Origin: Mustelus asterias
Lineage: Eukaryota
Direction of reading: 5' to 3'
Assembly: GCF_964213995.1 (NCBI RefSeq)
Contig: NC_135801.1
Location: 73,904,001 to 73,968,000, forward strand
DNA length: 64,000 nucleotides
Shown here piece after piece: positions 961-62,262 of the stretch; within the stretch, counting starts at the first letter, position 1; each line of letters opens with the position of its first letter. The notes under the pieces were generated by a model that ran no database searches, had not been told where the DNA came from, and saw nothing but the letters and a program-made list of their open reading frames with translations. The position numbers were made by a program, and so were the translations under genes.

Positions 961-3900
961 AGATTTAAACTGAAGTGCCTAATGCATGAAGTTGAATGAT
1001 AAGATGGCAAGTCATGTTGCAAACTTATTCTTATTCCAGAATTCAATGCAAGAACATTTAATCCTACGCACTTAATACCACCAGACCATCTCATCCCACT
1101 TAATTACCTGTGTTACTTAATTTTAACTGCCCATTAAGAGTTTGACATTTTTTACATGCAAGATTATATGTACATTATTAGGATAGTTAGTTGAGCCTTT
1201 TTTATATTACTTGCATTAATGTTCACGGTATAATTACGGAATGTGTTTGCGGGCTGTTGCTTCTGTTTGGGGCACCATTTCTCAGAAATAGTTTTTGACA
1301 GATATCCTCTCCTTATTAACTGCAGCAAAGCTCCCATGCTGCTTAACACTGTTCACCATAAACATTTGATTGTGGTCATTTAATGCACCAAAGCATTTGT
1401 TGTGTCAGATTAACTGTATTTATGTGCTCTGTTCTGCAGTGTTCACCTCTAATTAGGTTGTGGTGCATGTAGCCAGAAGGTGTAAATCTTTCTAACTTTA
1501 TTTAAACAAGTTCCATTATTTGTTGGCACTTTTAAAAAATATATAAATTCCTTCTAATTAAAAGTCAGAGTACCTGAAGCCCAAGCAAATTGAAGGGCTA
1601 ACCAAACTGCAGGGAGATTAAGCACTGCCACTCTGTCACTGGAGGGCAATGGGTGCTGCCATTAGCAGTGTCATCCAGAGTCACTTTTCCAACTAACTTT
1701 CTGTCCTGGATGCAGGGAACGCTGATACCTCCACTGGCAGCTGGACTAATTCGACAATAAGTAAGAGCAACATGAAGAAATGTGGCATTTCTCGAGCAGC
1801 ATGAACATCCATAGCCAAGCAAGTAATTAGTCAAGCTCTTGCTCTGATCAATACCTTCACAATCATCGCTACGGGCCTGATTAGTTGTTAGTGGGAGGGA
1901 ATGATTATAGGATGTGTAGGGCAGATGCCAAATTAACGAGGCCAACAAAAACAATCTCATATTTCTTGTCTGTGAGGTGATGCTAATGCAATCAATTCCA
2001 TTGTGCATTACAGCACAGTTGTGGCATAAGGATGCTGCGGGAATGACTTTTAATAGTTTCCATGGCGATGGGTTTAACTGCCAGTTCAGTGCTGCTGCCA
2101 GCATAACATATGGACATTTTACATCCACTGAAAAATGAGATTGGGAACCAGATTCTAGATTTAGTTAATGCAATTATGGTACACACACAATGACGTTTCC
2201 CTAAAAAGAAATAGACACACACTGTGGCCATATCTCACAAGGGTGTTTTTACATTACTACACAAATCATTCAGAATTGATTAAATCAATTTTATTTAACA
2301 TCTACACTGTAGATACTTTACATTCTGTTGCATATATATATTTATTATATATAAATGTATATATACATGACATCACAAATTACCTTTGTCTTTATTCATG
2401 AGGCAAAGTTAACATGAGCAAGTGGAAAATAATGTATAAATAATTAAATTGCAAATGTCATTGCAAAATGACTAATTGCACAATGCAACAAGTAAAATAT
2501 GTTTAAGCAACTTCAGATCAATTCCCAGTGGAGGCTAGTTTGCAGCGTAAACCTATCCTGAATTAAATGTGGCACTTGATTTGGCCACTTTACTCTGGAA
2601 AACACTACAGTACTATGAAGAATGTAAATGCTACTTGGTGCAGTAATTGGTGCTCTATTATAGTTGGGCCAGCAAGAGATTGTCAAGCCAATGCAAATAA
2701 AAACAAGCACAGTAAAGCACGATGTATCTTATCCGGAGATGTAATTTGGCGCACTGTGGAAAAATTTTTTTTTTTCCTCAGCATGCCCCACCAATGACCA
2801 GAACAGAACAAAAGAAAGTAGATTGTGGTATGGGATACATGGTGGGGGTGAAGTGTCTGCAGCATTATTAATGTCAGTGCATGAATGCCACTGCTGACAA
2901 CGTGCACTCTGTTTGATTCCATGCTATATTTTGTAGAAGCATGCTGGCAAAACCAATCCAGTCATAAGTCGCCTCAGTATTTTCTTCCATCCCACCATCT
3001 CCAGTGAGCTGGTATGTATTTTTCTGTTTTCTTTATCTCAAATCTGTTGGGTGAAATTTAATCAAATTCAAATATTAGAGCTGCAATTTAAGTGAAAGAC
3101 AGTGATCAAGGCATTTGCTATTAATTGTAGAACAAGTTTATTTTTCATAAAGGGGGAAGATTTAGAGTAAGACACTCACTAAGTATGTGTTAATGTCGAT
3201 AACTTAATATTTTCACATGAACACAATTGTGTTCCTGAAATTAATCCTGGGACAGGACTAATCACGCAGATTTACATTTTTCCAACTCGAGGACTTGTTA
3301 AGAATCAAGTGTATGACAAGTGTATAAGTTTGCTCATGATTAATCTTCAATACTATTACACCCACTGTAAAGATGCTATTAGGTTAGTGGAGATAACTGG
3401 CATGAGACCAAAGTGCAGCTGACCAAGAAATACTATAGAAAGAAACTCAGCTCTTTCAGCCCACCCAACAGTATCAGCAATTTTTACTTTGTTAGACATA
3501 TTTCAAGAGTTGGAAGACATGTGGTAGTGAAGGCCTAATGCTCTTAAAGCCTAAGGGGGAAGGACCACTACTAGTGTCAGAGCTGCCTCAACCTTATTCA
3601 GTCAGATAGCCATTTGAAGAATTTGCCACAGATGTCAGTGCATAAATCGACCTTTGAAGCCTCGAAAATCCCTCCAAAAATAGAGAAGGTGAATATAAAA
3701 ATGAACCAGCTTTGGTCAGCACCTTTGTCGTTCACCATGTGGGGTCTTCTCTGTGTTGATGTGTCTTAAACTCTCACGCATCTTCGCAACACAACCCATA
3801 TCACCTACTTGATTGCTTGCACCCAGTGATAAGGCACCGGTAATTAAAAGATTCATTTGTAGGGGAAAAAATTGAGCTGACTACTAAAGCGAGTATAACG

Positions 3901-4169
3901 TGTCTTGGCTGCAAAGGGAGAAGCTCAACATATGTACCAAATATATGCAAAAGCATGAATTTTGGGGCTAAACAAAGAGTTGTCTTATACACTAGGTCAA
4001 GTTAAATGTTGTACTCTAATAGCAAGGATTCTGTGTCATTGATGTGGGCGTAAGACACCTCACAGTAAGAACTCTCCTCAAACGTTTAAACCTTACATGG
4101 GAGAGGGTAGGACTTGCTTGTCATTTCTCAACCTTTGGGCATGGAGAGATCATTTCGAAAGGTAGGATC

Positions 4170-4272
4170 TAACAGTATAGAAGGAGGCCATTTGGCCCAT
4201 CATACCTGTACCAGCTTTTTGAAAGAGCTATCCATTTAATGCCATTTTCCAATATCTCTGCAAATTCCTTCA
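4170..4272 (-). mobile_element. CR1 LINE 3' UTR fragment
   Basis: agaaggaggccatttggcccatc is the reverse complement of the CR1 3' terminal motif seen in other CR1 copies in this window. Confidence 0.55.
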
Positions 4273-4520
4273 AATTAGTTTCACTGGAAATGAGAATCAG
4301 GAGTGATATATAGTGTCTAATTTTCACTTCCATTTCTGCTTATCTTTTCCTCTAGATTGTTCTGTTAACAAATAGCTATCTCAAGTCAATCTCAAGTCCT
4401 TAAAGACAATGTTTGTTACTCAAATGTTGCACATTATATCTTAACATTGTGGCGCTGCAAGAAAGAAATCAAGTGTCATCAAGAGATGCAGACACTGACT
4501 GGCTATGACTGTCCCTGGCC

Positions 4521-4726
4521 ATGTGTGGAAATGCCGGCGTTGGACTGGGGTAAACACAGTAAGGAGTCTAACAGCACCAGGTTAAAGTCCAACAGGTTTA
4601 TTTGGTAGCAATCGCCACAAGCTTTCGGAGCCTTAAGCCCCTTCTTCAGGTGAGTGGGAATTCTGTTCACAAACAGGGCATGTAAAGACACAAACTCAAT
4701 TTACAGAATAATGGTTGGAATGCGAA
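4521..4726 (-). mobile_element. Penelope-like element terminal repeat (pLTR) fragment with hammerhead motif
   Basis: Inverted homolog of the 3' end of the GIY-YIG-bearing copy at 5323-6100, and near-identical to 58821-59000. Confidence 0.85.
4615..4653 (-). ncRNA. Minimal type I hammerhead ribozyme motif
   Basis: Minus strand reads cac CUGAAGA A GGGGC uuaag GCUCC GAAA GCUU gug: core boxes, stem II, stem I CAC/GUG and palindromic AGCU stem III. Confidence 0.75.
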
Positions 4727-4729
4727 TTC

Positions 4730-5161
4730 GAATTTGGATAGGCTCAGTTTGTTTTCATTAGAGCAGAGAAGAAGGCGACCTGATTGAGGTGTTAAAGATG
4801 ATGAGGTGCATTGACAGAGTGTATAAGGAACAGCTGTTCCCATTAGTTGAAAGGTCAGTCACGAGTGTGCATAGGTTCAAGGTGAGGTTCAGGGGAAATG
4901 TGAGGAAAGCCTTTTATCAAGAGGGTGGTAATGGTTTGGAATGCACTGCCTGGGAGGGTGGTGGAGGTGGGTTGCCTCACATCTTTTAAAAAGTATCTGG
5001 ATGAGCACTTGGCACATCATAATATTCAGGGCTATGGGCCAAGTGCTGGCAGATGGGATTAGGTGGGAGTTCAGATGTTTCTAATATGTCAGTGCAGAGT
5101 CGATGGGCCAAAGGACCTCTTCTGCGCTGTATGATTCTATCATTCTATCATTCTATGATTC
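4730..5161 (+). mobile_element. 5'-truncated CR1 LINE 3' end (HER1-like)
   Basis: Encodes RLSLFSLEQRR..DLIEVLKMMRCIDRV..EQLFPL, followed by a 3' UTR and an ATGATTCT-type tail shared with the HE1-like SINEs. Confidence 0.85.
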
Positions 5162-5204
5162 AATCTGCTAAATATTTTATTCTAAGACAGGCCCTTCAGG
5201 GCAT

Positions 5205-5287
5205 CAGGCAATTAAATTTCTCTGAACTGCTTCCAATGCAAGTATATGCCTCCTTAAGTAAGGAGACCAAAACTGTACACCATATTT
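5205..5287 (-). mobile_element. CR1 ORF2 fragment
   Basis: ORF track translation YGVQFWSPYLRRHILALEAVQR matches the CR1 C-terminal motif. Confidence 0.75.
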
Positions 5288-5322
5288 ATCGTGGGGGATG
5301 CTGGTGTAGAGTGCTGGCAGAG

Positions 5323-6100
5323 TCCACGACACCACACAACCCTGCCACAGCAACCTCTGCAAGACGTGCTGGATCATCGACACGGATGCCATCATCTAAC
5401 GTGAGAACACCATCTACCAAGTACACGGTACCTACTCTTGCAACTCGGCCAACGTTGTTTACCTGATATGCTGCAGGAAAGGATGTCCCGAGGCATGGTA
5501 CATTGGGGAAACCATGCACACGCTGCAACAATGGATGAATGAACATCACTCAACATTCACCAGGCAAGACTGTTCTCTTCCTGTGGGGGAGCACTTCAGC
5601 GGTCACGGGCATTCAGCCTCTGATCTTCGGGTAAGCGTTCTCCAAGGCAGCCTTCACGACACACGACAGCGCAGTCGCTGAGCAGAAACTGATAGCCAAG
5701 TTCCGCACACATGAGGACGGCCTAAACCGGGATCTTGGGTTCATGTCACACTATCGGTAGCCCCTACAGCTTGCCTCCTGGTTTTGCAGAATCTCACTGG
5801 CTGTCCTGTCTAGAGACAATACACATTTCTTTAACCTGTGCCTAATGCTCCCTCCACTCACATTGTCTGTATCTTTAAGACCTGATTAGCTGTAAAGATT
5901 CGCATTCTAATCAGTATTCTGTAACTTGATTTTTTGTCTCTGTATGCCCTGTTTGAGAGCAGATATCCACTCCATCTGATGAAGGAGCAGCGCTCCGAAA
6001 GCTAATGGCATTTGCTACCAAATAAACCTGTTGGACTTTAACCTGGTATTGTGAAAACTCTTACTGTGTTTACCCCAGTCCAACGCCGGCATCTCCACAT
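5323..6100 (+). mobile_element. Penelope-like retroelement 3' part: GIY-YIG endonuclease pseudo-ORF plus pLTR
   Basis: Translates as PCHSNLCKTC...NSANVVYLICCRKGCPEAWYIGET...EHFSGHGHS...AEQKLIAKFRTHEDGLNRD: a Cys-rich linker and VVY-YIG motif, with one stop and one frameshift. Confidence 0.9.
5972..6008 (+). ncRNA. Minimal type I hammerhead ribozyme motif
   Basis: CCAU CUGAUGA A GGAGC agc GCUCC GAAA GCUA AUGG; predicted cleavage after CUA at 6004. Confidence 0.8.
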
Positions 6101-6802
6101 AATGGGGAGAAGGCAGGAAAGTAGAGTCAATGATTAATGGTAACCCTCAGGATGTTAACAGTGGGGGATTTAGCGATGGTGACGCCCTTGAATGTCAAAG
6201 GTAGATCAGCCATGATCCTACTGAATGACAAGCGTATGCCATACTCCTGCTCCTTTTCATATGATCTTTGAAGAATTATTATGCAAACCTATTCTTTCAA
6301 TTTATTATATACATACAACTTGATTATATAAATGACATCTGACCATACACGAATGATCCTTCAGTCTTCTCTGCACCCCCACCAAACAAAGTAAGGCTCA
6401 TTAAACGCAGGGGAAGAGTTTCTTCACGTGTATGCTAGTTGTTTTGTAAAAATAATGAGAACATTTCCTCTATTCAGGAAAATCTAAAATGTGTCGTTTG
6501 GAAATTCTTTTGCAATTCCACTGAAGGAAATCTTCCCAGTGTGTTTGCCATTTGGCCAACAAATGTTACTGAGAAGAAATCTTTCCCTATCAGTTTAAGA
6601 ACCTGTCTGTAATGGATCTGTCTATAAACATAATTAACTGTTAACTGTTAAGCTGTGACATGTCTATCAGCTTGATCGATTGTTCTATAATGTGGTTCTT
6701 TCATTACATGTTGGTGTGGTATTAGTTTTCCCTATGTTCTATAAGCTAAGAGAAGCCGACAGTTGATTATCTGCAGTTAGTGCCAACATGCACTATGACA
6801 CT

Positions 6803-6964
6803 ATTAAAAAGCATTTAGACATTTACATGGATAAGATGGGTATAGAGGGATATGGGCCAAATGCAGGCAATTGGGACTAGCTCAGTGTCTTGGAAAAAAA
6901 AGGGCGGCTTGGACAAGTTGGGCCGAAGGGCCTGTTTTTATGCTGTAAACCTCAATGACTCTAG
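6803..6964 (+). mobile_element. CR1 3' UTR fragment
   Basis: Highly similar to the 3' UTR of the CR1 at 14660-14822. Confidence 0.8.
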
Positions 6965-7721
6965 AGTCACTGAGATTTACAGCATAGTTTATACTATGGT
7001 TTTTTCATCACTGCCACAATGCTGCTGATTAAAAATGAAACCGGAAGGTAACAATTTTTAGTTTGTCACATATAACCTAAAAATATGATGTGCTGTATTA
7101 ATTTATGAACACACAGCACATTTGTATGATGTTATTATATCCATTATTTTAATGGGTTAAAATCTCTGTTAATCAAGAAATGCCAATTCATCTGACATAA
7201 AATAACTTGATTTTTTGACTTTAGGATCTGGAACCTTACATTGTAAGGTCAGCACAAGGGTGTGAGACAAAACATGACTCTCATAACTATGTCCCTCCAA
7301 CAGGGTTATGTGCAACCTCTTGGTACCCTTCCACACTCACTCCAAATAGGATAGAGGCTGCTTGAAAAGTTGAATGGCCTTTTCTCATTAGGATTTTCTT
7401 TTGTACCTAAATTCAGCAATGCCCAGGGTGACCCTTCGAATGGCATCAAAGGCTTTTAATGTCTGTATTTTACTTCCAGTTTTGCTCTCCTACCTTTCAT
7501 TATAGGTGTAGTGATTGTCCCTTTGAGGGCAACACAGCAGAGTAAGGGTCACCTGGTTTGGGGGACCAATTGGCACTTAGAGTGGATAGTCACCCAAGGG
7601 GTAGAGTCCTGTTGAGCAGGAGACATGTAGGGAGCTAAATGCAGCCATGAGACTGCTGTTTTCTTCTTCTCATTATTATTATTATTATTCCTTTGTATTC
7701 GCAAATGAAATCCATCAAGGT

Positions 7722-8075
7722 GGGCGGCACGGTAGCACAGTGGTTAGCACTGCTGCTTCACAGCTCCAGGGACCTGGGTTCGATTCCCGGCTTGGGTCAC
7801 TGTCTGTGTGGAGTTTGCACATTCTCCTCGTGTCTGCATGGGTTTCCTCCGGGTGTTCCGGTTTCCTCCCACAGTCCAAAGATGTGCGGGTTAGGTTGAT
7901 TGGCCATGCTAAAAATTGCCCTTAATGTCCTGAGATGCATAGGTTAGAGGGATTAGTAGGTAAATATGTAGGGATATAGGAGTAGGGCCTGGGTGGGATT
8001 GTGGTCGGTGCAGACTCAATGGGCAGAATGGCCTCTTTCTGTACTGTAGGGTTTCTATGATTTCTATGATTCTAT
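7722..8075 (+). mobile_element. HE1-like V-SINE, full length, CR1-type tail
   Basis: tRNA-like head with A box (tagcacagtgg) and B box (ggttcgattcc), V-domain (gggtttcctccgggtg.tccggtttcctcccacagtccaaaga) and CTATGATTT-type tail. Confidence 0.9.
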
Positions 8076-8139
8076 TATGATAGGGTATTATTTTGACATT
8101 GACATGTCGAGTAGCTGGAAGAGAAATGCTGCCTTCATC

Positions 8140-8567
8140 AAGATATTCAGCCATGTGAGCAGAGGCAGTCTATTTAAGTTGCTGGAGAAAATTGGCTGGC
8201 TGCTGGAACTGTTCAATGTGATCTCCTCTTTCCATGACAACATGATGGTTAAGGTCAGTTATGACGGAGGAACATTGGAAACTCTTGAGATTCGCAGTGG
8301 AGTCAGATGAGTTTGTGTTCTGGTACTGACATTCTTTGGAACATTCTTCTCATTGCTGCTGTCAAATGTCATCTACAGAGAGTGTCTCCTTACACAGAAC
8401 AGACAGAAAGCTGTTTGCTTGTGTTTACCTGAGATCCAAGGCAAAGGTGTGCTGAGTCCTCATCAAAGATTTGCTCTAAGTTAGCAATGCTGCAATTGGT
8501 TCTATAACAAGGGACACCTTCAAAGTCAAAGGGGAAACCTCTCTCACACCTCCAAAGAGTTTAGTTT
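8140..8567 (+). mobile_element. RTE-clade LINE RT fragment, 5' part
   Basis: LFKLLEKIG...ISSFHDNM..KVSYDG....EIRSGVR..CVL..TFFGTFFSLLL resembles RTE/BovB-type RT; continues at 10626. Confidence 0.75.
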
Positions 8568-10625
8568 TGTTGTAAAGTGAAAGGTGGGTAAAGGTGCCTT
8601 GACTAATCTTTACCAGTTTGCAGTAAGCCTTTTTAACTCAGGGGCATTACACGGTGAGATAGACAAGAATCAGGTGAAAGCCCAACACAACTTTATTGAA
8701 CACTTTATCAAGGAAAAACAATGTTTATCAGACTCTACTATTGTACTTTAATTAAACTCTATCAATCTCATCACAGGATTCTTCAGTAAGCAGTCTTAGA
8801 TGTATAAATAAATAGTCTCAAATCAACACTGGCTATCTACTTCTGTAACGTGCTTCCCAGGATTCGCTACACCCTATCCACAGGCCCCTATCACTGTTTG
8901 TCTGAAAAAGTTGGTAATACCCATTCAACAAGGCTGAGACAGGCTGATCCTTGGTCTTTGAGTGTTGGCTGATATTTCAGGATCTGCACTCATCAATTTG
9001 GGCTTCCTCTCTCATCTAGGATTGGTTCTGGTCTTCAGGTTGTCTCACCGGATGGCTTTCTGGATCTGGTCAGTCTGATGATGCTCGCCACAAGGTACAA
9101 GGAGCTGGAGATAGTGTGCTGCTCGGCTGCCAGTCAAAGGTGCACTGTGGAGTTGCCCTTGAAGAAGGTGCAAAAGCAAAGAGGGCTGGAACTCCAGGTT
9201 ACCCCTTTTATTCCCCTCTTTGTGCCCTCCACAAAGATTCTGTGATCCATGTCTAATGCTAGCGTTGGGTGGGACAGGAAGATCCAATGAGTTGACTACT
9301 TTCCATATTTGGAGGTCGCAGAACATGGTATTGAAACTTCAATTTTCAGTGTTAACCTTGTCAGACTATGTCCCTGGCCTCCTACTGAGTTGGGTGCCAC
9401 CAGGTCTGAGTAGCATTCTTCGAACAAAGCAGGTTCACTGGTGATACAAACAACAGTTCGTTCTGAAACAATTTGGCCATTATTAGCACCTGGCCAGGCA
9501 GTTCCAGGTCTGTCCTGTTTCGATGGGAAGTTGATTGTCCAAGGCCTGGCTGCATGAAACAAAAATAGGCGGGTCAGTAAGTTGCAATGAGGAAATAAGA
9601 ACCTTACAAATGAATATAGCTAGGTTAGGAGAATGGGCCAAAATGTGGCAGATGGAGTTTAACGTGGTTAAGTGTGAGGTCATGCATTTTGGTGGCAAAA
9701 ATGGGAAGGTGACTTATTATCTAAATGGGGACAGACTTTGGGGTGCTCCGGTGCAGAGGGATCTGGGTGTCCTCATTCATGAGTCACAGTAAACGAGCAT
9801 GCAGTTTCAGCAGATAATAAAGAAAGTGAATGGAATGTTGGCATTTATAGCTAAAGGAATAGAATGTAAAAGCAAGGGAGTATTATTGCAACTATACAAG
9901 GCATTGGTGAAGCTGCACCTGGGGTATTGTGCACAGTTTTGGTCCCCGTATTTGAGGAAAGATGTAGTGGCATTGGAGGCAATTCAGAGCAGGTTCACTA
10001 GATTGATTCCAGAGATGAGGGGTTTGTTGTATGAAGAGAGATTGAACAGTTTAGGCCTATACTCTCTGGAATTTAGAAGAATAAAGGGAGATCAAATAGA
10101 GGTATTCAAGATGATAAAAGGTAGGGATAAAGTAGACATAAAATGGATGCTTCCACTGGTGGGGCATTCTAGGACGAGAGGTCATAGTCTTAGGATAAGG
10201 GGTAGCAAATTTAAAACAGAGTTGAGGAGAAACTATTTCTCCCAAAGGGTTGTGAATCTGTGGAATTCGCTACTCCAAAGTGCGATGGATGCTGGGACAG
10301 TGAGTGAGTAAGTTTAAGGAGGAGTTAGACAGATTTTTAATTGTAATGGGTGGAAAGGTTATGGGGAGAAGGCAGGAAAATGGGGATGAGGAGCATATCA
10401 GCCATGATCGAATAGTGGAGTGGACTCGATGGGCCAAATGGGCCTAATTCTGCTCCTAATTCTTATGAACTTATGAACACCGTCTGTTACAGCTCTGCAG
10501 TTTGCAAATTGCAGAGTCTGGTTAGATTTAAACTTGGCTTCCACATTTCGAGTTTTTAGTCATGCTCATGGAAAAATATCAATATTTCTGTAACAATCCT
10601 GGAGGTCATGGGTCACCTGACCACA
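8568..10625 (-). mobile_element. Solo LTR (about 1.1 kb net) inserted in the RTE and itself interrupted by a CR1
   Basis: TGT...ACA termini with 4-bp TSD GTTT (8564-8567 and 10626-10629). Removing it restores the RTE frame EFSLTIS. AATAAA on the minus strand near 8693. Confidence 0.75.
9553..10477 (+). mobile_element. 5'-truncated CR1 LINE
   Basis: ORFs 9535-9792 and 9799-10311 give WQMEFNVVKCEVMHFG...YCAQFWSPYLRKD, followed by a 3' UTR and TTATGAAC-type tail. Confidence 0.92.
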
Positions 10626-11981: not shown

Positions 11982-12513
11982 AGTAAGAAGTTTAACAGCA
12001 CCAGGTTAAAGTCCAACAGGTTTATTTGGTAGCAAAAGCCACTAGCTTTCAGAACAGGCTGAACCTTCGTCAGGTGGGTGGGAGTTCTGATCACAAACAG
12101 GGCACAAAGACACAAACTCAATTTACATGAATAATGATTGGAATGCAGACTTTACAGCTAATCAAGTCTTAAAGGTACAGACAATGTGAGTGGAGGAAGC
12201 ATTAAGCACAGGTTAAAGAGATGTGTATTGTCTCCAGACAGGACAGCTAGTGAGATTTTGCACATCCAGGCAGGTTGTGGGGGTTACAGATAGTGTGATA
12301 TGCACCCAATATCCCAGTTGAGGCCGTCCTCATGTGTACGGAACTTGGCTATCAGTCTCTGCTCAGCGACTCTGCGCTGATGTGTGTCGTGAAGGACACC
12401 TTGGAGAACGCTTACCCGGAGATCAGAGGCTGAATGCCCGTGACCACTGAAGTGCTCCCCAACAGGAAGAGAACAGTCTTGCCTGGTGATTGTCGAGCGG
12501 TGTTCATTCACCC
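11982..12513 (-). mobile_element. Penelope-like element 3' fragment with 8-bp TSD
   Basis: ORF 12284-12571 matches the GIY-YIG C-terminus. Flanked by GTATTAAT at 11974-11981 and 12514-12521. Hammerhead core with a degenerate stem II at 12039-12077. Confidence 0.88.
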
Positions 12514-13585
12514 GTATTAATGCCAGGTTTAGGGGATTCCTAGGAATTACCTGGAATAAACATCTGACCAAATATTTTTTACATCACCTGACATTTATCC
12601 ACATGACTCCAGCCATGCATAATTTTCAAATCATTGAAATGAATGGATCAAAAATCTTTTGCAGGCCATGAATCGGACAACGCCCAAGGTCCTGATACAC
12701 ACTTGCATGGCACAGAGCTCTGCATTAAGGGTACAAAATTATGAAATGCACACTTACGTTTTATAGTTCTGTCTGATTTTATAAATAAATGTGGTCAATG
12801 AATTTGGGTCTGTTGAATTGTTCATTGGTATTAAACGTTTTTTGGAGGGAGTATGGAGGAGAATAAGAGGCTGCATACAATCCTGTTACAGTAGCACAGT
12901 TGTGATAATTGTTAATCACAAGATAAGATTTGGATTTCATAACCGAAGTGTTGTTATTCATTTACAGAAACTGTAGCCAGCCAATGAGCCAGAAAACTAC
13001 AAAACTGAGTAACATAAACTAAATATATCTACAGGAAAATCATCATCTAATTTGGACAAAAGAACTGTTCTGAGAATTCACTGACGTATAATTACAAGTC
13101 CCAGATGGATTTTTACTCCTCCTTCTATTGATTTTCAGAAATATGTTTGCTTTAAAAAGTTCATGTACAGCTTTTAATCTTGACATGATTGCCATTTTAC
13201 CTCCAATTCGAAGAGGAAGGGTTTTAGTTTCCCAGGTGCAGTTTTTGTTTGACTGGGGTCATTCTGTACATTACTCATATTCCAATAGAAGTCAACATTT
13301 TAATATTTATGTAACATTTTACAGGTATAAAATAAGACAGGAATATTTTTAGGTTACATTCTTAAGTAAAGAGGATAATATTACAAAATATACAGTATTC
13401 AGACTGCATGACTTTGCAAGTGACATTAAATAGGAAGCATTGTGATAACCAATCTATAAAGTCTGTATGTAAGCTGTTTGTGTAAGATGCAAGACATACT
13501 ATCTATTGAAAGTATTTAGAAGATATACCTGAAAGCATGGGCCCAAAAATCTCCAGTCTTTCTGGTGAACCCCTGTCAAACACAT

Positions 13586-22540: not shown

Positions 22541-23088
22541 TAAGGAGCAACATATAAATGAATAGCCCGAATCTTCTGAGGCGAGGCAATCATCATTGAT
22601 TGCCCCTCTGCTCTGACTTTTCCCACCCTGACACTGCTGCACATCTCTGGCCGAGTCTTCCAAGCCTGACTTGTTCAAAAATGCGGGGCAGAGCTTCTGT
22701 CCAAGAGCTCTGTCAGAGTGCTGTAGTGTCTGGAAGAACTGGGCGTGCCCCCTCTTTATGGCACTAGCTGCTGTATGGTAAGTTTAAATGTCCAGTGTGA
22801 ATTGTAATGAATAGATGAATGGGTTAGGTGGGTAGGATAGCAGGTGGATAGGGTGATCGGGTGGTAGATGGGTGATGTGGTAGGTGAGTAGGGTTATCGG
22901 ATGGCAGGCGAGTGAGGTGGTAGTCTGTAGGGTAGCAGGTGAGTGATGTGGATAGGTGGGTAGGCTTGGAAGACTCAACCAGAGATGTGCAGCAGTGTCA
23001 GAGTGGGCAAAAGTTGGAGCAGAGGGGCAATCAATGATGATTGCCTCGCTCAGAAGATTCGGGCTATTCATTTATATGTTGCTCCTTA
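22541..23088. repeat. Foldback/MITE-like element with 127-bp inverted arms
   Basis: 22541-22667 is the reverse complement of 22962-23088 with about 7 differences by eye. The spacer holds a G-rich GGTG/GGTA simple repeat. Confidence 0.9.
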
Positions 23089-51189: not shown

Positions 51190-51545
51190 AATAAAAGCAA
51201 AATACTGCAGATGCTGGAATTCTAAAATAACAACAGAAAATACTGGATAAACTCAGCATGTCTTTGATTTGATTCATTATTTTCACATGTATTTGTATGC
51301 ACTAAAAAGTATTGTTTATTGTGCGCTATACAGATGTAGCATACCATTCATAGAGAAGGAAAGGAAAGAGTGCAGAATGTAGTGTTACAGTCATAGCTAG
51401 TGTGGAGAGAAAGATCAACTTAGTGCAAGATAGGTCCATTCAAAAGTCTGATGGCAACAGGGAAGAAGCTGTTCTTCAGTCTGGCAGCATTTATGAAGAG
51501 AAACAGAGTTAACGTTTCGAGTCCAAACAGCTCTTCGACAGAGGG
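51190..51545 (-). mobile_element. Penelope-like terminal fragment interrupted by a Rex1 tail (about 51264-51478)
   Basis: aaatactgcagatgctggaa...ctggcagcat...gttaacgtttcgagtcc. The minus strand has degenerate CUGUCGA...GAAACGUUAAC. The insert is the reverse complement of 19470-19680. Confidence 0.7.
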
Positions 51546-52182: not shown

Positions 52183-52255
52183 GACGTGAACAAGGACCTG
52201 AACCCTGGAGCTTCAGATTAAAAGTCTAATGCTCTACCGACTGAGCTGTAACAGC
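52183..52255 (-). pseudogene. tRNA-Lys(UUU) pseudogene
   Basis: AGCTCAGTCGGTAGAGCATTAGACTTTTAATCTGAAGCTCCAGGGTTCAGGTCCTTG closely matches vertebrate tRNA-Lys-UUU; the acceptor stem does not pair. Confidence 0.85.
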
Positions 52256-58820: not shown

Positions 58821-59280
58821 AGTAAGAAGTTTAACAACACCAGGTTAAAGTCCAACAGGTTTATTTGGTAGCAAAAGCCACACAAGCTTTCGGAGCTCCA
58901 AGCCCCTTCTTCAGGTGAGTGGGAATTCTGTTCACAAACAGGGCATATAAAGACACAAACTCAATTTACATGAATAATGGTTGGAATGCGAATACTTACA
59001 ACTAATCAAGTCTTTAAGAAACAAAACAACGTGAGTGGAGAGAGCATCAAGACAGGCTAAAGAGATGTGTATTGTCTCCAGGCAAGACAGCCAGTGAAAC
59101 TCTGCAGGTCCAGGCAACTGTGGGGGTTACAAATAGTGTGACATGAACCCAATATCCCGGTTGAGGCCATCCTCGTGTGTGCGGAACTTGGCTATCAGTT
59201 TCTGCTCAGCGACTCTGCGCTGTCGTGTGTCGCGAAGGCCGCCTTGGAGAATGCTTACCCGAATATCAGAGGCCGAATGC
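58821..59280 (-). mobile_element. Penelope-like element 3' fragment
   Basis: Homologous to 11982-12513 and to the reverse complement of 5610-6065. Confidence 0.88.
58881..58917 (-). ncRNA. Minimal type I hammerhead ribozyme motif
   Basis: cac CUGAAGA A GGGGCU ugg AGCUCC GAAA GCUU gug. Confidence 0.78.
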
Positions 59281-61683: not shown

Positions 61684-62011
61684 CGTAAGAAGTCTCACAA
61701 TACCAGATGAAAGTCCAACAGGTTTATTTGGTATCACGAACTTTTGGAGCACTTCTTATCAATATCACTCGGCCACCCCCTCCCCATTGAATCTTAAAAT
61801 TGTGCATTTGCAACAAGTGCTACACTAGTGGCTTCAGTTGGGGAGTCTGCAGGTGGCCTTGCAGGATGACCTTGATCAGCTCTGGCCTTGGAAGGCCCAG
61901 CTTCAGACTGCGCTACCTCAGCATGGGCGACCACAGTCTGTGCTGACTGGTTGACAGGCAAGGGCACTGCAGAGGCGATAGGAGTATAAATACTGTCTTC
62001 TTGAGAGATGA

Positions 62012-62262
62012 TATGGAGACAATACACATCTCTTTAACCTGTGTTGAATGCTCCCTCCACCCACATTGTCTGTACCTTTAAGACCTGGCTGGCTGTAGAG
62101 ATTTGCATTCTAATTAGTATTCTGTAACTTGATTTCTGTGTCTGTGCACTGTTTTAGAGCACATTTCCACTCCATCTGACGAAGGAGCAGTGCTCCGAAA
62201 GCTTATGGTATTTGCTACCAAATAAACCTGTTGGACTTTAACCTGGTGTTGTGAGACTTCTT
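62012..62262 (+). mobile_element. Penelope-like pLTR fragment with 12-16-bp TSD
   Basis: Matches 5810-6062; flanked by tcttcttgagagatga at 61996-62011 and 62259-62274, where the first bases overlap the element end. Confidence 0.88.
62172..62208 (+). ncRNA. Minimal type I hammerhead ribozyme motif
   Basis: CCAU CUGACGA A GGAGC agu GCUCC GAAA GCUU AUGG. Confidence 0.8.

Follow-up and report, generated by a model that had tools for sequence, protein, structure and literature searches.

The 64,000-nt stretch of the genome of the shark Mustelus asterias that we analysed (hereafter the window) carries several short motifs resembling the minimal hammerhead ribozymes of Penelope-like elements (PLEs), and the question raised by this locus is whether they are self-cleaving RNAs and, if so, which transcripts they would process. 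Minimal PLE hammerheads have been reported in Neptune, Poseidon and Xena elements of fishes, coelacanth, Xenopus and reptiles, and are described as cleaving weakly and only as multimers (dimers, trimers), according to the available text of PMC4209133; the dimer model is summarised in the accessible part of PMC6765202. Whether the minimal hammerheads of animal PLEs cleave in vivo, and for what purpose, is stated to be open in the available sections of PMC4209133, PMC8557442 and PMC11167929.

Minimal hammerhead motifs in the window

The first-pass annotation listed four intact motifs (5972..6008 and 62172..62208 on the plus strand, 4615..4653 and 58881..58917 on the minus strand) and a partly decayed one (12039..12077, minus strand), and all five are found at these coordinates and on these strands. 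A loose pattern, CTGANGA-N5-30-GAAA, gives 15 matches in the window against 6.0 expected. The full descriptor, which consists of the core, a stem II of at least 4 bp, U-H and a stem I of at least 3 bp, retains exactly the four intact motifs and has no match in any of 100 dinucleotide shuffles; the other 10 loose-pattern matches (for example 21925, and 61520 in a SINE) fail this structural descriptor and were rejected. The core CUGANGA ... GAAA ... UH is present in type I order in all five motifs, and in all five stem III consists of A-GC-U, the reduction to the palindrome AGCU that had been noticed at first reading.

In the copy at 5972..6008 (+), a minimal type I hammerhead, stem I pairs 5972-5975 with 6005-6008, the core CUGAUGA (5976-5982) is followed by an extra A at 5983, stem II pairs 5984-5988 with 5992-5996, and GAAA (5997-6000) runs into the palindrome AGCU (6000-6003). 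H17 is A6004, and the predicted cut lies 3' of it, at the site already proposed. The predicted H17 positions of the other copies are 62204 (+), 4619 (−), 58884 (−) and 12043 (−); in the last of these, the copy at 12039, the core is retained and stem II has decayed from its subfamily form GGGACA/UGUUCC. A weak candidate for a distal extension of stem I past an internal loop spans 5958..6016 on the plus strand (5958-5964 with 6010-6016); it shows one double change between subfamilies, and other subfamilies show broken pairs. In the subfamily consensuses, the younger subfamilies appear to have a 7-nt tandem duplication just after the cut relative to the older ones, and this duplication supplies the 3' strand of the candidate distal helix.

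An Rfam scan of the window found no hammerhead family at E ≤ 10, as would be expected for hammerheads without helix III. Identity with a canonical type I hammerhead was rejected, as there is no Rfam model match and loop II varies freely.

The first-pass list omitted a sixth stub (61685..61760, −), located inside a tRNA-like SINE, which retains the 3' half of an older subfamily's hammerhead, in decayed form, and the 3' block. It also omitted a decayed motif at 51511-51541 (−), which belongs to a second, older hammerhead-bearing repeat family in which an ACGU palindrome replaces AGCU; this second family is mostly decayed, and further copies occur in the sampled loci L145, L152, L161, L163, L166, L170, L177, L229 and L230. 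Elsewhere in the window, a tRNA-like match at 52191-52247 (−; Rfam RF00005, 38 bits) adjoins a repeat of a SINE-like family of ~340 bp, of which the window holds more than 15 copies, and an inverted repeat (22541-22667 and 22962-23088; 127 bp, 94.5% identity, with a 300-bp core between the arms) is unrelated to the PLE.

The source element and its truncated copies

The full element was recovered by walking upstream through genome copies and then fetching 12 long candidates. Its unit is 3,016 bp with an ORF of 892 aa, which is intact in three of the 12 long copies, and two motifs in direct orientation ~3 kb apart are present in nine of the 12, with repeats 95-99% identical. Full-length copies have one hammerhead in each pLTR: the predicted cut lies 97 nt before the start codon, and the upstream motif recurs 3,016 nt later in the downstream pLTR. 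Partial tandems have repeats of variable length (97-1,007 bp), and in one full-length copy (L261, near 113.05 Mb) the start of the 5' repeat is at +2, counted from the predicted cut.

The ORF contains an RT domain (PF00078, above the cut-off) and, at its C-terminal end, a GIY-YIG domain (PF01541, E = 4.5e-4, just below the cut-off), and inspection of the translations reveals a CX4CxxC linker before the endonuclease and two Cys between the GIY- and YIG-like motifs. Linkers of the CX4CxxC type are reported for Neptune and Nematis in the available text of PMC8557442, and the combination of a C-terminal GIY-YIG with CCHH and CX2-5CxxC linker, a Neptune/Nematis feature, is present in the shark element. 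These protein motifs, rather than a tree, point to a Neptune-type PLE. Proteins named from Mustelus, Scyliorhinus and Heptranchias share 84-93% identity with that of the element, and a PDB sequence search with the 892-aa protein gave no match at E ≤ 0.01. That the motifs are type I minimal hammerheads belonging to a shark PLE, as initially identified, thus agrees both with their anatomy and with the shark origin of these protein relatives. As a separate observation, the identity of 84-93% extends across distantly related sharks, yet it is only 43-45% to turtle relatives; slow evolution or transfer among sharks may lie behind this.

As far as the available text of the earlier reports goes, the element resembles the Neptune/Nematis EN+ PLEs (Craig et al. 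2021, PMC8557442; Arkhipova et al. 2013, PMC3846280) in its C-terminal GIY-YIG and zinc-finger-like linker, and also in 5' truncation, partial tandems, a head-to-head inverted arm, a tail on one end only and target-site duplication. Similarly, it shares a hammerhead near the ORF start and a tandem organisation with PAc, a Poseidon element of the green anole (Frangieh et al. 2024, PMC11167929, in the sections available). In contrast to PAc, the shark element has a Neptune-type CX4CxxC linker, and its ORF starts 97 nt after the cut, with the long 3' end at the start codon, whereas the cut in PAc is placed 26 nt inside the ORF.

The abundance of the element was estimated from an unbiased sample of 140 evenly spaced 10-kb stretches of the genome (1.4 Mb; L111-L250), in which it covers 3.1% of bases. 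The sample contains ~97 insertions and 53 descriptor matches of the element family, which scale to about 250,000 and about 140,000 genome-wide, respectively; the latter, a number of core-intact motifs, compares with 4,000-9,000 in coelacanth and Xenopus as given in the available part of PMC4209133. For the AUGG subfamilies, one exact 24-mer has 49,395 occurrences in the genome. Among 154 distinct long 3' ends from all loci, ten subfamilies with two or more members were distinguished, and copies diverge by 1.4-4.3% from their own subfamily consensus, with CpG-type decay. The element is very abundant and probably recently active in the shark genome. Literature searches on hammerheads and Penelope-like elements in sharks found no description of this family, which Repbase, Dfam or supplements may list, and sharks are unnamed in the examined text and two supplements of PMC4209133. 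Hammerhead retrozymes are reported in one chondrichthyan genome (Li et al. 2026, preprint 10.64898/2026.07.22.740005, in its available text), and these non-LTR retrozymes, like the shark motifs, involve type I hammerheads derived from PLE pLTRs. Retrozymes are described there as short, non-autonomous tandem units with a ribozyme in each, whereas the shark copies are dispersed, 5'-truncated copies of an autonomous element; retrozyme identity was rejected for the window copies, which are dispersed and map to the 3' end of a 3-kb coding element.

All five window motifs sit in the 3' pLTR of 5'-truncated, non-coding fragments of this one PLE. The motif at 5972 belongs to a 5'-truncated copy of 787 bp (5318..6104, +; −686 to +100 relative to the predicted cut), which retains the C-terminal linker and GIY-YIG endonuclease at 5325-5757, with an in-frame stop near 5380 and a frameshift near 5672; the endonuclease part is 88% identical to the protein of the intact element over 91 aa. 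The coding part is followed on its 3' side by the pLTR, the hammerhead and a tail of ~39 nt ending at the position of the ORF start codon, and a 27-bp inverted scrap of the RT region of the same element (5288..5314, −) lies at the 5' junction of this copy. The intact hammerhead at 4615-4653 is in a stub with a tail (4520..4727, −; −104 to +100). The two copies were considered as a head-to-head pair, and this was rejected because they are of different subfamilies, both have tails and no common target duplication was found; the 4520-4727 stub is a separate insertion. The remaining fragments have no tail: one carries the decayed hammerhead 12039-12077 (11982..12515, −; −473 to +61), one, of the CUGAAGA subfamily, carries the intact hammerhead 58881-58917 (58821..59280, −; −395 to +61), and a stub carries the intact hammerhead 62172-62208 (62014..62262, +; −191 to +58) and has a 16-bp target-site duplication whose first copy is at 61996. 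The copies at 5972 and 62172 are included in the AUGG subfamilies.

The proposal that the window copies themselves process element transcripts did not hold, since each of the five is 5'-truncated and has neither an ORF nor a tandem partner. They are thus unlikely to process anything and are best regarded as inert, ordinary by-products of the family, and hammerhead function, if any, would belong to full-length source elements outside the window.

Constraint, covariation and predicted folding

Constraint was counted in the 66 copies that keep the 5' flank among 111 anchored arms of the unbiased sample, the remainder being truncated inside the motif. The core is intact in 57 of the 66 copies. N7 is C, A, U or G in 22, 24, 19 and 1 copies, and H17 is A, U or C in 20, 40 and 6 copies and G in none (0/66). 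The extra nucleotide between 9 and 10.1 is A in 66/66; the pair G10.1-C11.1 is G-C in 57 and G-U, by CpG decay, in the other nine; and in the AGCU palindrome (15.2-16.2, with no closable helix III) the G is kept in 65 and the C in 63. Loop II varies freely (AGC, AGU, UGU, AUU, UAG, UGG, UAA), and the conserved loop II nucleotides that make the helix I-helix II contact in canonical type I hammerheads were not found among the unbiased copies. The min-HHR of Cervera and De la Pena (2014, PMC4209133) is likewise described, in the text available, as type I without closable helix III and with a short helix I, with an extra nucleotide between 9 and 10.1, the pair G10.1-C11.1 and a palindromic 15.2-16.2, and as located in pLTRs, mostly as solitary motifs in truncated copies and with rare 3-kb tandems. 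The shark motif thus appears to possess every sequence feature listed there for minimal PLE hammerheads; it differs from the Schistosoma min-HHR families of the same source in a helix II of 5-6 bp versus 7-8 bp.

The core is kept in all ten subfamily consensuses, against variation in 73 of 152 columns of the upstream UTR. Since the block 3' of the motif likewise changes little (7 of 48 variable columns), conservation alone is no proof of catalysis. In contigs of four runs from other organisms, differences of more than 5% are located at N7, H17, the loop, the covarying stem I pair, the stem II wobbles and the flanks rather than in the core, with one exception in a single contig at 5976. An apparent variability of 1 in 11 core columns was rejected as a gap artefact of MAFFT, and a candidate 3' splice site (CAG) 43 nt upstream of the cut was dropped as it is absent from several subfamilies.

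Base pairs were counted by parsing each copy separately, because MAFFT placed the 3' strand of stem I wrongly when subfamilies were aligned together. Pair 1 of stem I is C-G in 43, U-A in 21 and other in 2 of the 66 copies, and pair 3 of stem II is A-U in 36, G-U in 24 and G-C in 3 unbiased copies; one subfamily has a G-C to A-U change in stem II, and another has an added pair. The five window copies are not independent, because they fall in four subfamilies of one element, and about three subfamily-level events on the subfamily tree account for the compensatory double changes. With so few events, covariation is supportive rather than a significant test. The stem covariation noted in the first-pass annotation is therefore real but shallow, the change of U-A to C-G in stem I being one subfamily-level event at one pair.

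Dimer dependence, which had also been put forward, derives from the literature, and the folding model does not bear it out: the active dimer, at −19.1 kcal/mol, has no edge over two monomers (−19.2), and an inactive duplex is favoured (−29.1). For three window copies the model predicts a competing hairpin just 3' of the cut, and monomer folds are unremarkable (z from −2.6 to +0.4, the lowest value being that of a non-hammerhead fold of the decayed copy). As read from sequence, the motifs are real and correctly recognised, belong to the already described type of PLE hammerhead and are predicted to be self-cleaving.

Copy ends and the predicted cut

In the 1.4-Mb sample, the 3' ends of 64 of 141 arms lie near +60 and those of 70 near +99, both past the predicted cut. 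These positions match the two internal RT start sites and the tail of the anole element, as PAc also shows two 3' ends 30-40 nt apart that define a tail, and copies that pass the cut (PMC11167929, in the sections available). More than 90% of the arms reaching the cut site continue upstream across it, which indicates that the usual template was uncleaved or religated RNA; no more than a minority of templates would be cleaved. In the 1.4-Mb sample 5' ends do not visibly cluster at the cut, the 5-nt bin there holding 5 of 101 arms.

The layout that the Neptune/Nematis reports describe can be quantified here: of 44 head-to-head pairs, 43 combine an end near +60 with one near +99 (P = 2.5e-12, binomial), and 37 of the 44 show a target duplication of 10-17 bp, versus 17 of 1,892 in a mismatched-flank control. 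The 5' ends of the two arms are within 10 nt of each other in 15 of 37 (shuffle mean 3.7, maximum 11). The head-to-head layout fits priming from both cut DNA strands at two internal start sites. At L145 and L238 the arms of one insertion may come from two subfamilies, which would imply two template RNAs. Two loci on different contigs (L032 5573-7574 and L045 5483-7477) have a common PLE-CR1 junction, with 94.6% identity over 2 kb, suggesting that the element inserted twice at the same CR1 site. Short and long arms alike are often 5'-truncated between +35 and −60, and truncation further upstream is ~3-7-fold lower; the drop occurs at the same template position in both arm types and may reflect a transcription start or a structural barrier.

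Whole-genome pattern counts required three non-element bases upstream, and shares were corrected for flank composition. In the CUGAAGA subfamily, 1,410 boundaries fall at +1/−1, versus 197 at −4/−5 and 198 at +4/+5; after flank correction, and with denominators scaled from 23 sample copies, the shares are 7.1% at the cut versus 1.1% (−4/−5) and 1.9% (+4/+5). Among the first 100 listed CUGAAGA matches, counted by eye, the base at −1 is foreign to the element in 75, and 34 belong to one type of fold-back junction, so that the flank correction overstates the share, which is ~4.7% without them. The CUGAAGA peak falls on the scissile bond itself, with 0-1 nt of microhomology. In the AUGG subfamilies, 747 boundaries are at +1/−1 (3.5%) versus 243 at −4/−5 (1.3%); however, the +5/+6 control has 1,647 (6.4%), mostly fold-back junctions, and exceeds the +1/−1 share. 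Nine of the first 50 among 3,300 fold-back junctions have one form that is compatible with a first strand ending at −1 to +3. The excess at the cut site thus holds in the CUGAAGA subfamily and is ambiguous in the AUGG subfamilies, which include that of the 5972 copy and in which the peak is not unique. For PAc, in contrast to the genomic 5'-end excess in this one shark subfamily, RNA-seq had no read ends at the cut (PMC11167929, available text).

These observations are probably best explained by minimal type I hammerheads in the end repeat of a Neptune-type PLE that would self-cleave slowly after H17, and only in full-length tandem transcripts. The two motifs of a tandem unit would pair via the AGCU palindrome, and the element protein probably helps cleavage; the PAc ribozyme of the anole is reported to need protein and to be dispensable for insertion in vitro (PMC11167929, same sections). 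We infer that reverse transcription would start inside the RNA at +60 and +99, mostly on uncleaved RNA, and that a minority of RNAs would already be cut, so that the enzyme would run off at +1 and leave the excess of copies beginning at the scissile bond. Cleavage would shorten the transcript or take it out of use, setting a leader of 97 nt before the ORF, and would not be required before insertion. The chances are evenly balanced that roughly 2,000-3,000 CUGAAGA insertions are such run-off copies of RNA cleaved in the germline, with a share that differs between subfamilies.

The fold could instead be kept for a non-catalytic job (binding of the element protein, pairing of two element RNAs or RT stopping), with the +1 excess marking a point at the base of stem I where the polymerase stalls or fold-back is frequent. 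High truncation of arms of either length throughout the region between +35 and −60 would agree with this, as would the other sharp junction hot spot at +5/+6 and the anole element, in which core mutants left insertion in vitro unchanged and no reads ended at the cut (PMC11167929, as available); Cervera and De la Pena also left other functions possible in the accessible text of PMC4209133. We nevertheless consider this explanation unlikely, as variation in the motif is limited to positions where catalysis tolerates it, including the avoidance of G17 (0/66), and as the CUGAAGA peak coincides with the scissile bond, at 0-1 nt of microhomology. Somewhat less probable again is the circle model proposed in PMC4209133 (available text), under which both motifs are cut and ligation yields a 3,016-nt circle as the main template, so that reading across the cut would reflect religation. 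The partial tandems, whose repeats differ in length (97-1,007 bp) and are 95-99% identical, suit copying over more than one turn, but linear tandem transcripts would give the same layout; moreover, the two motifs of L252 carry different loop haplotypes, both recurrent elsewhere, which is impossible from one circle (one of nine two-motif copies), and in vitro the dominant substrate is unprocessed RNA (PMC11167929, sections available). That the window copies are domesticated and act on a host transcript, or that the motifs are chance look-alikes, is very improbable: some of the about 140,000 core-intact motifs genome-wide will lie in host transcripts, but the window copies are 1.4-4.3% off consensus with CpG-type decay, lie on both strands, are already broken in one of five and bear no mark of selection, and the absence of descriptor matches in 100 shuffles excludes chance.

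For slow cleavage of tandem transcripts, the preferred reading, the fresher clue is the few percent of CUGAAGA copies that begin exactly at the predicted cut, which are likely a record of cutting in living cells. With intact ORFs, at least ten subfamilies of natural ribozyme variants and about 250,000 insertions, the question becomes testable by 5'-end counting and at the bench. If this reading is true, the shark genome would hold a fossil record, at single-nucleotide resolution, of the cutting of a Penelope minimal hammerhead in the germline, and its subfamilies would provide a natural in vivo activity series for a class of ribozymes whose activity in cells is not shown in the available text of PMC4209133, PMC8557442 and PMC11167929.
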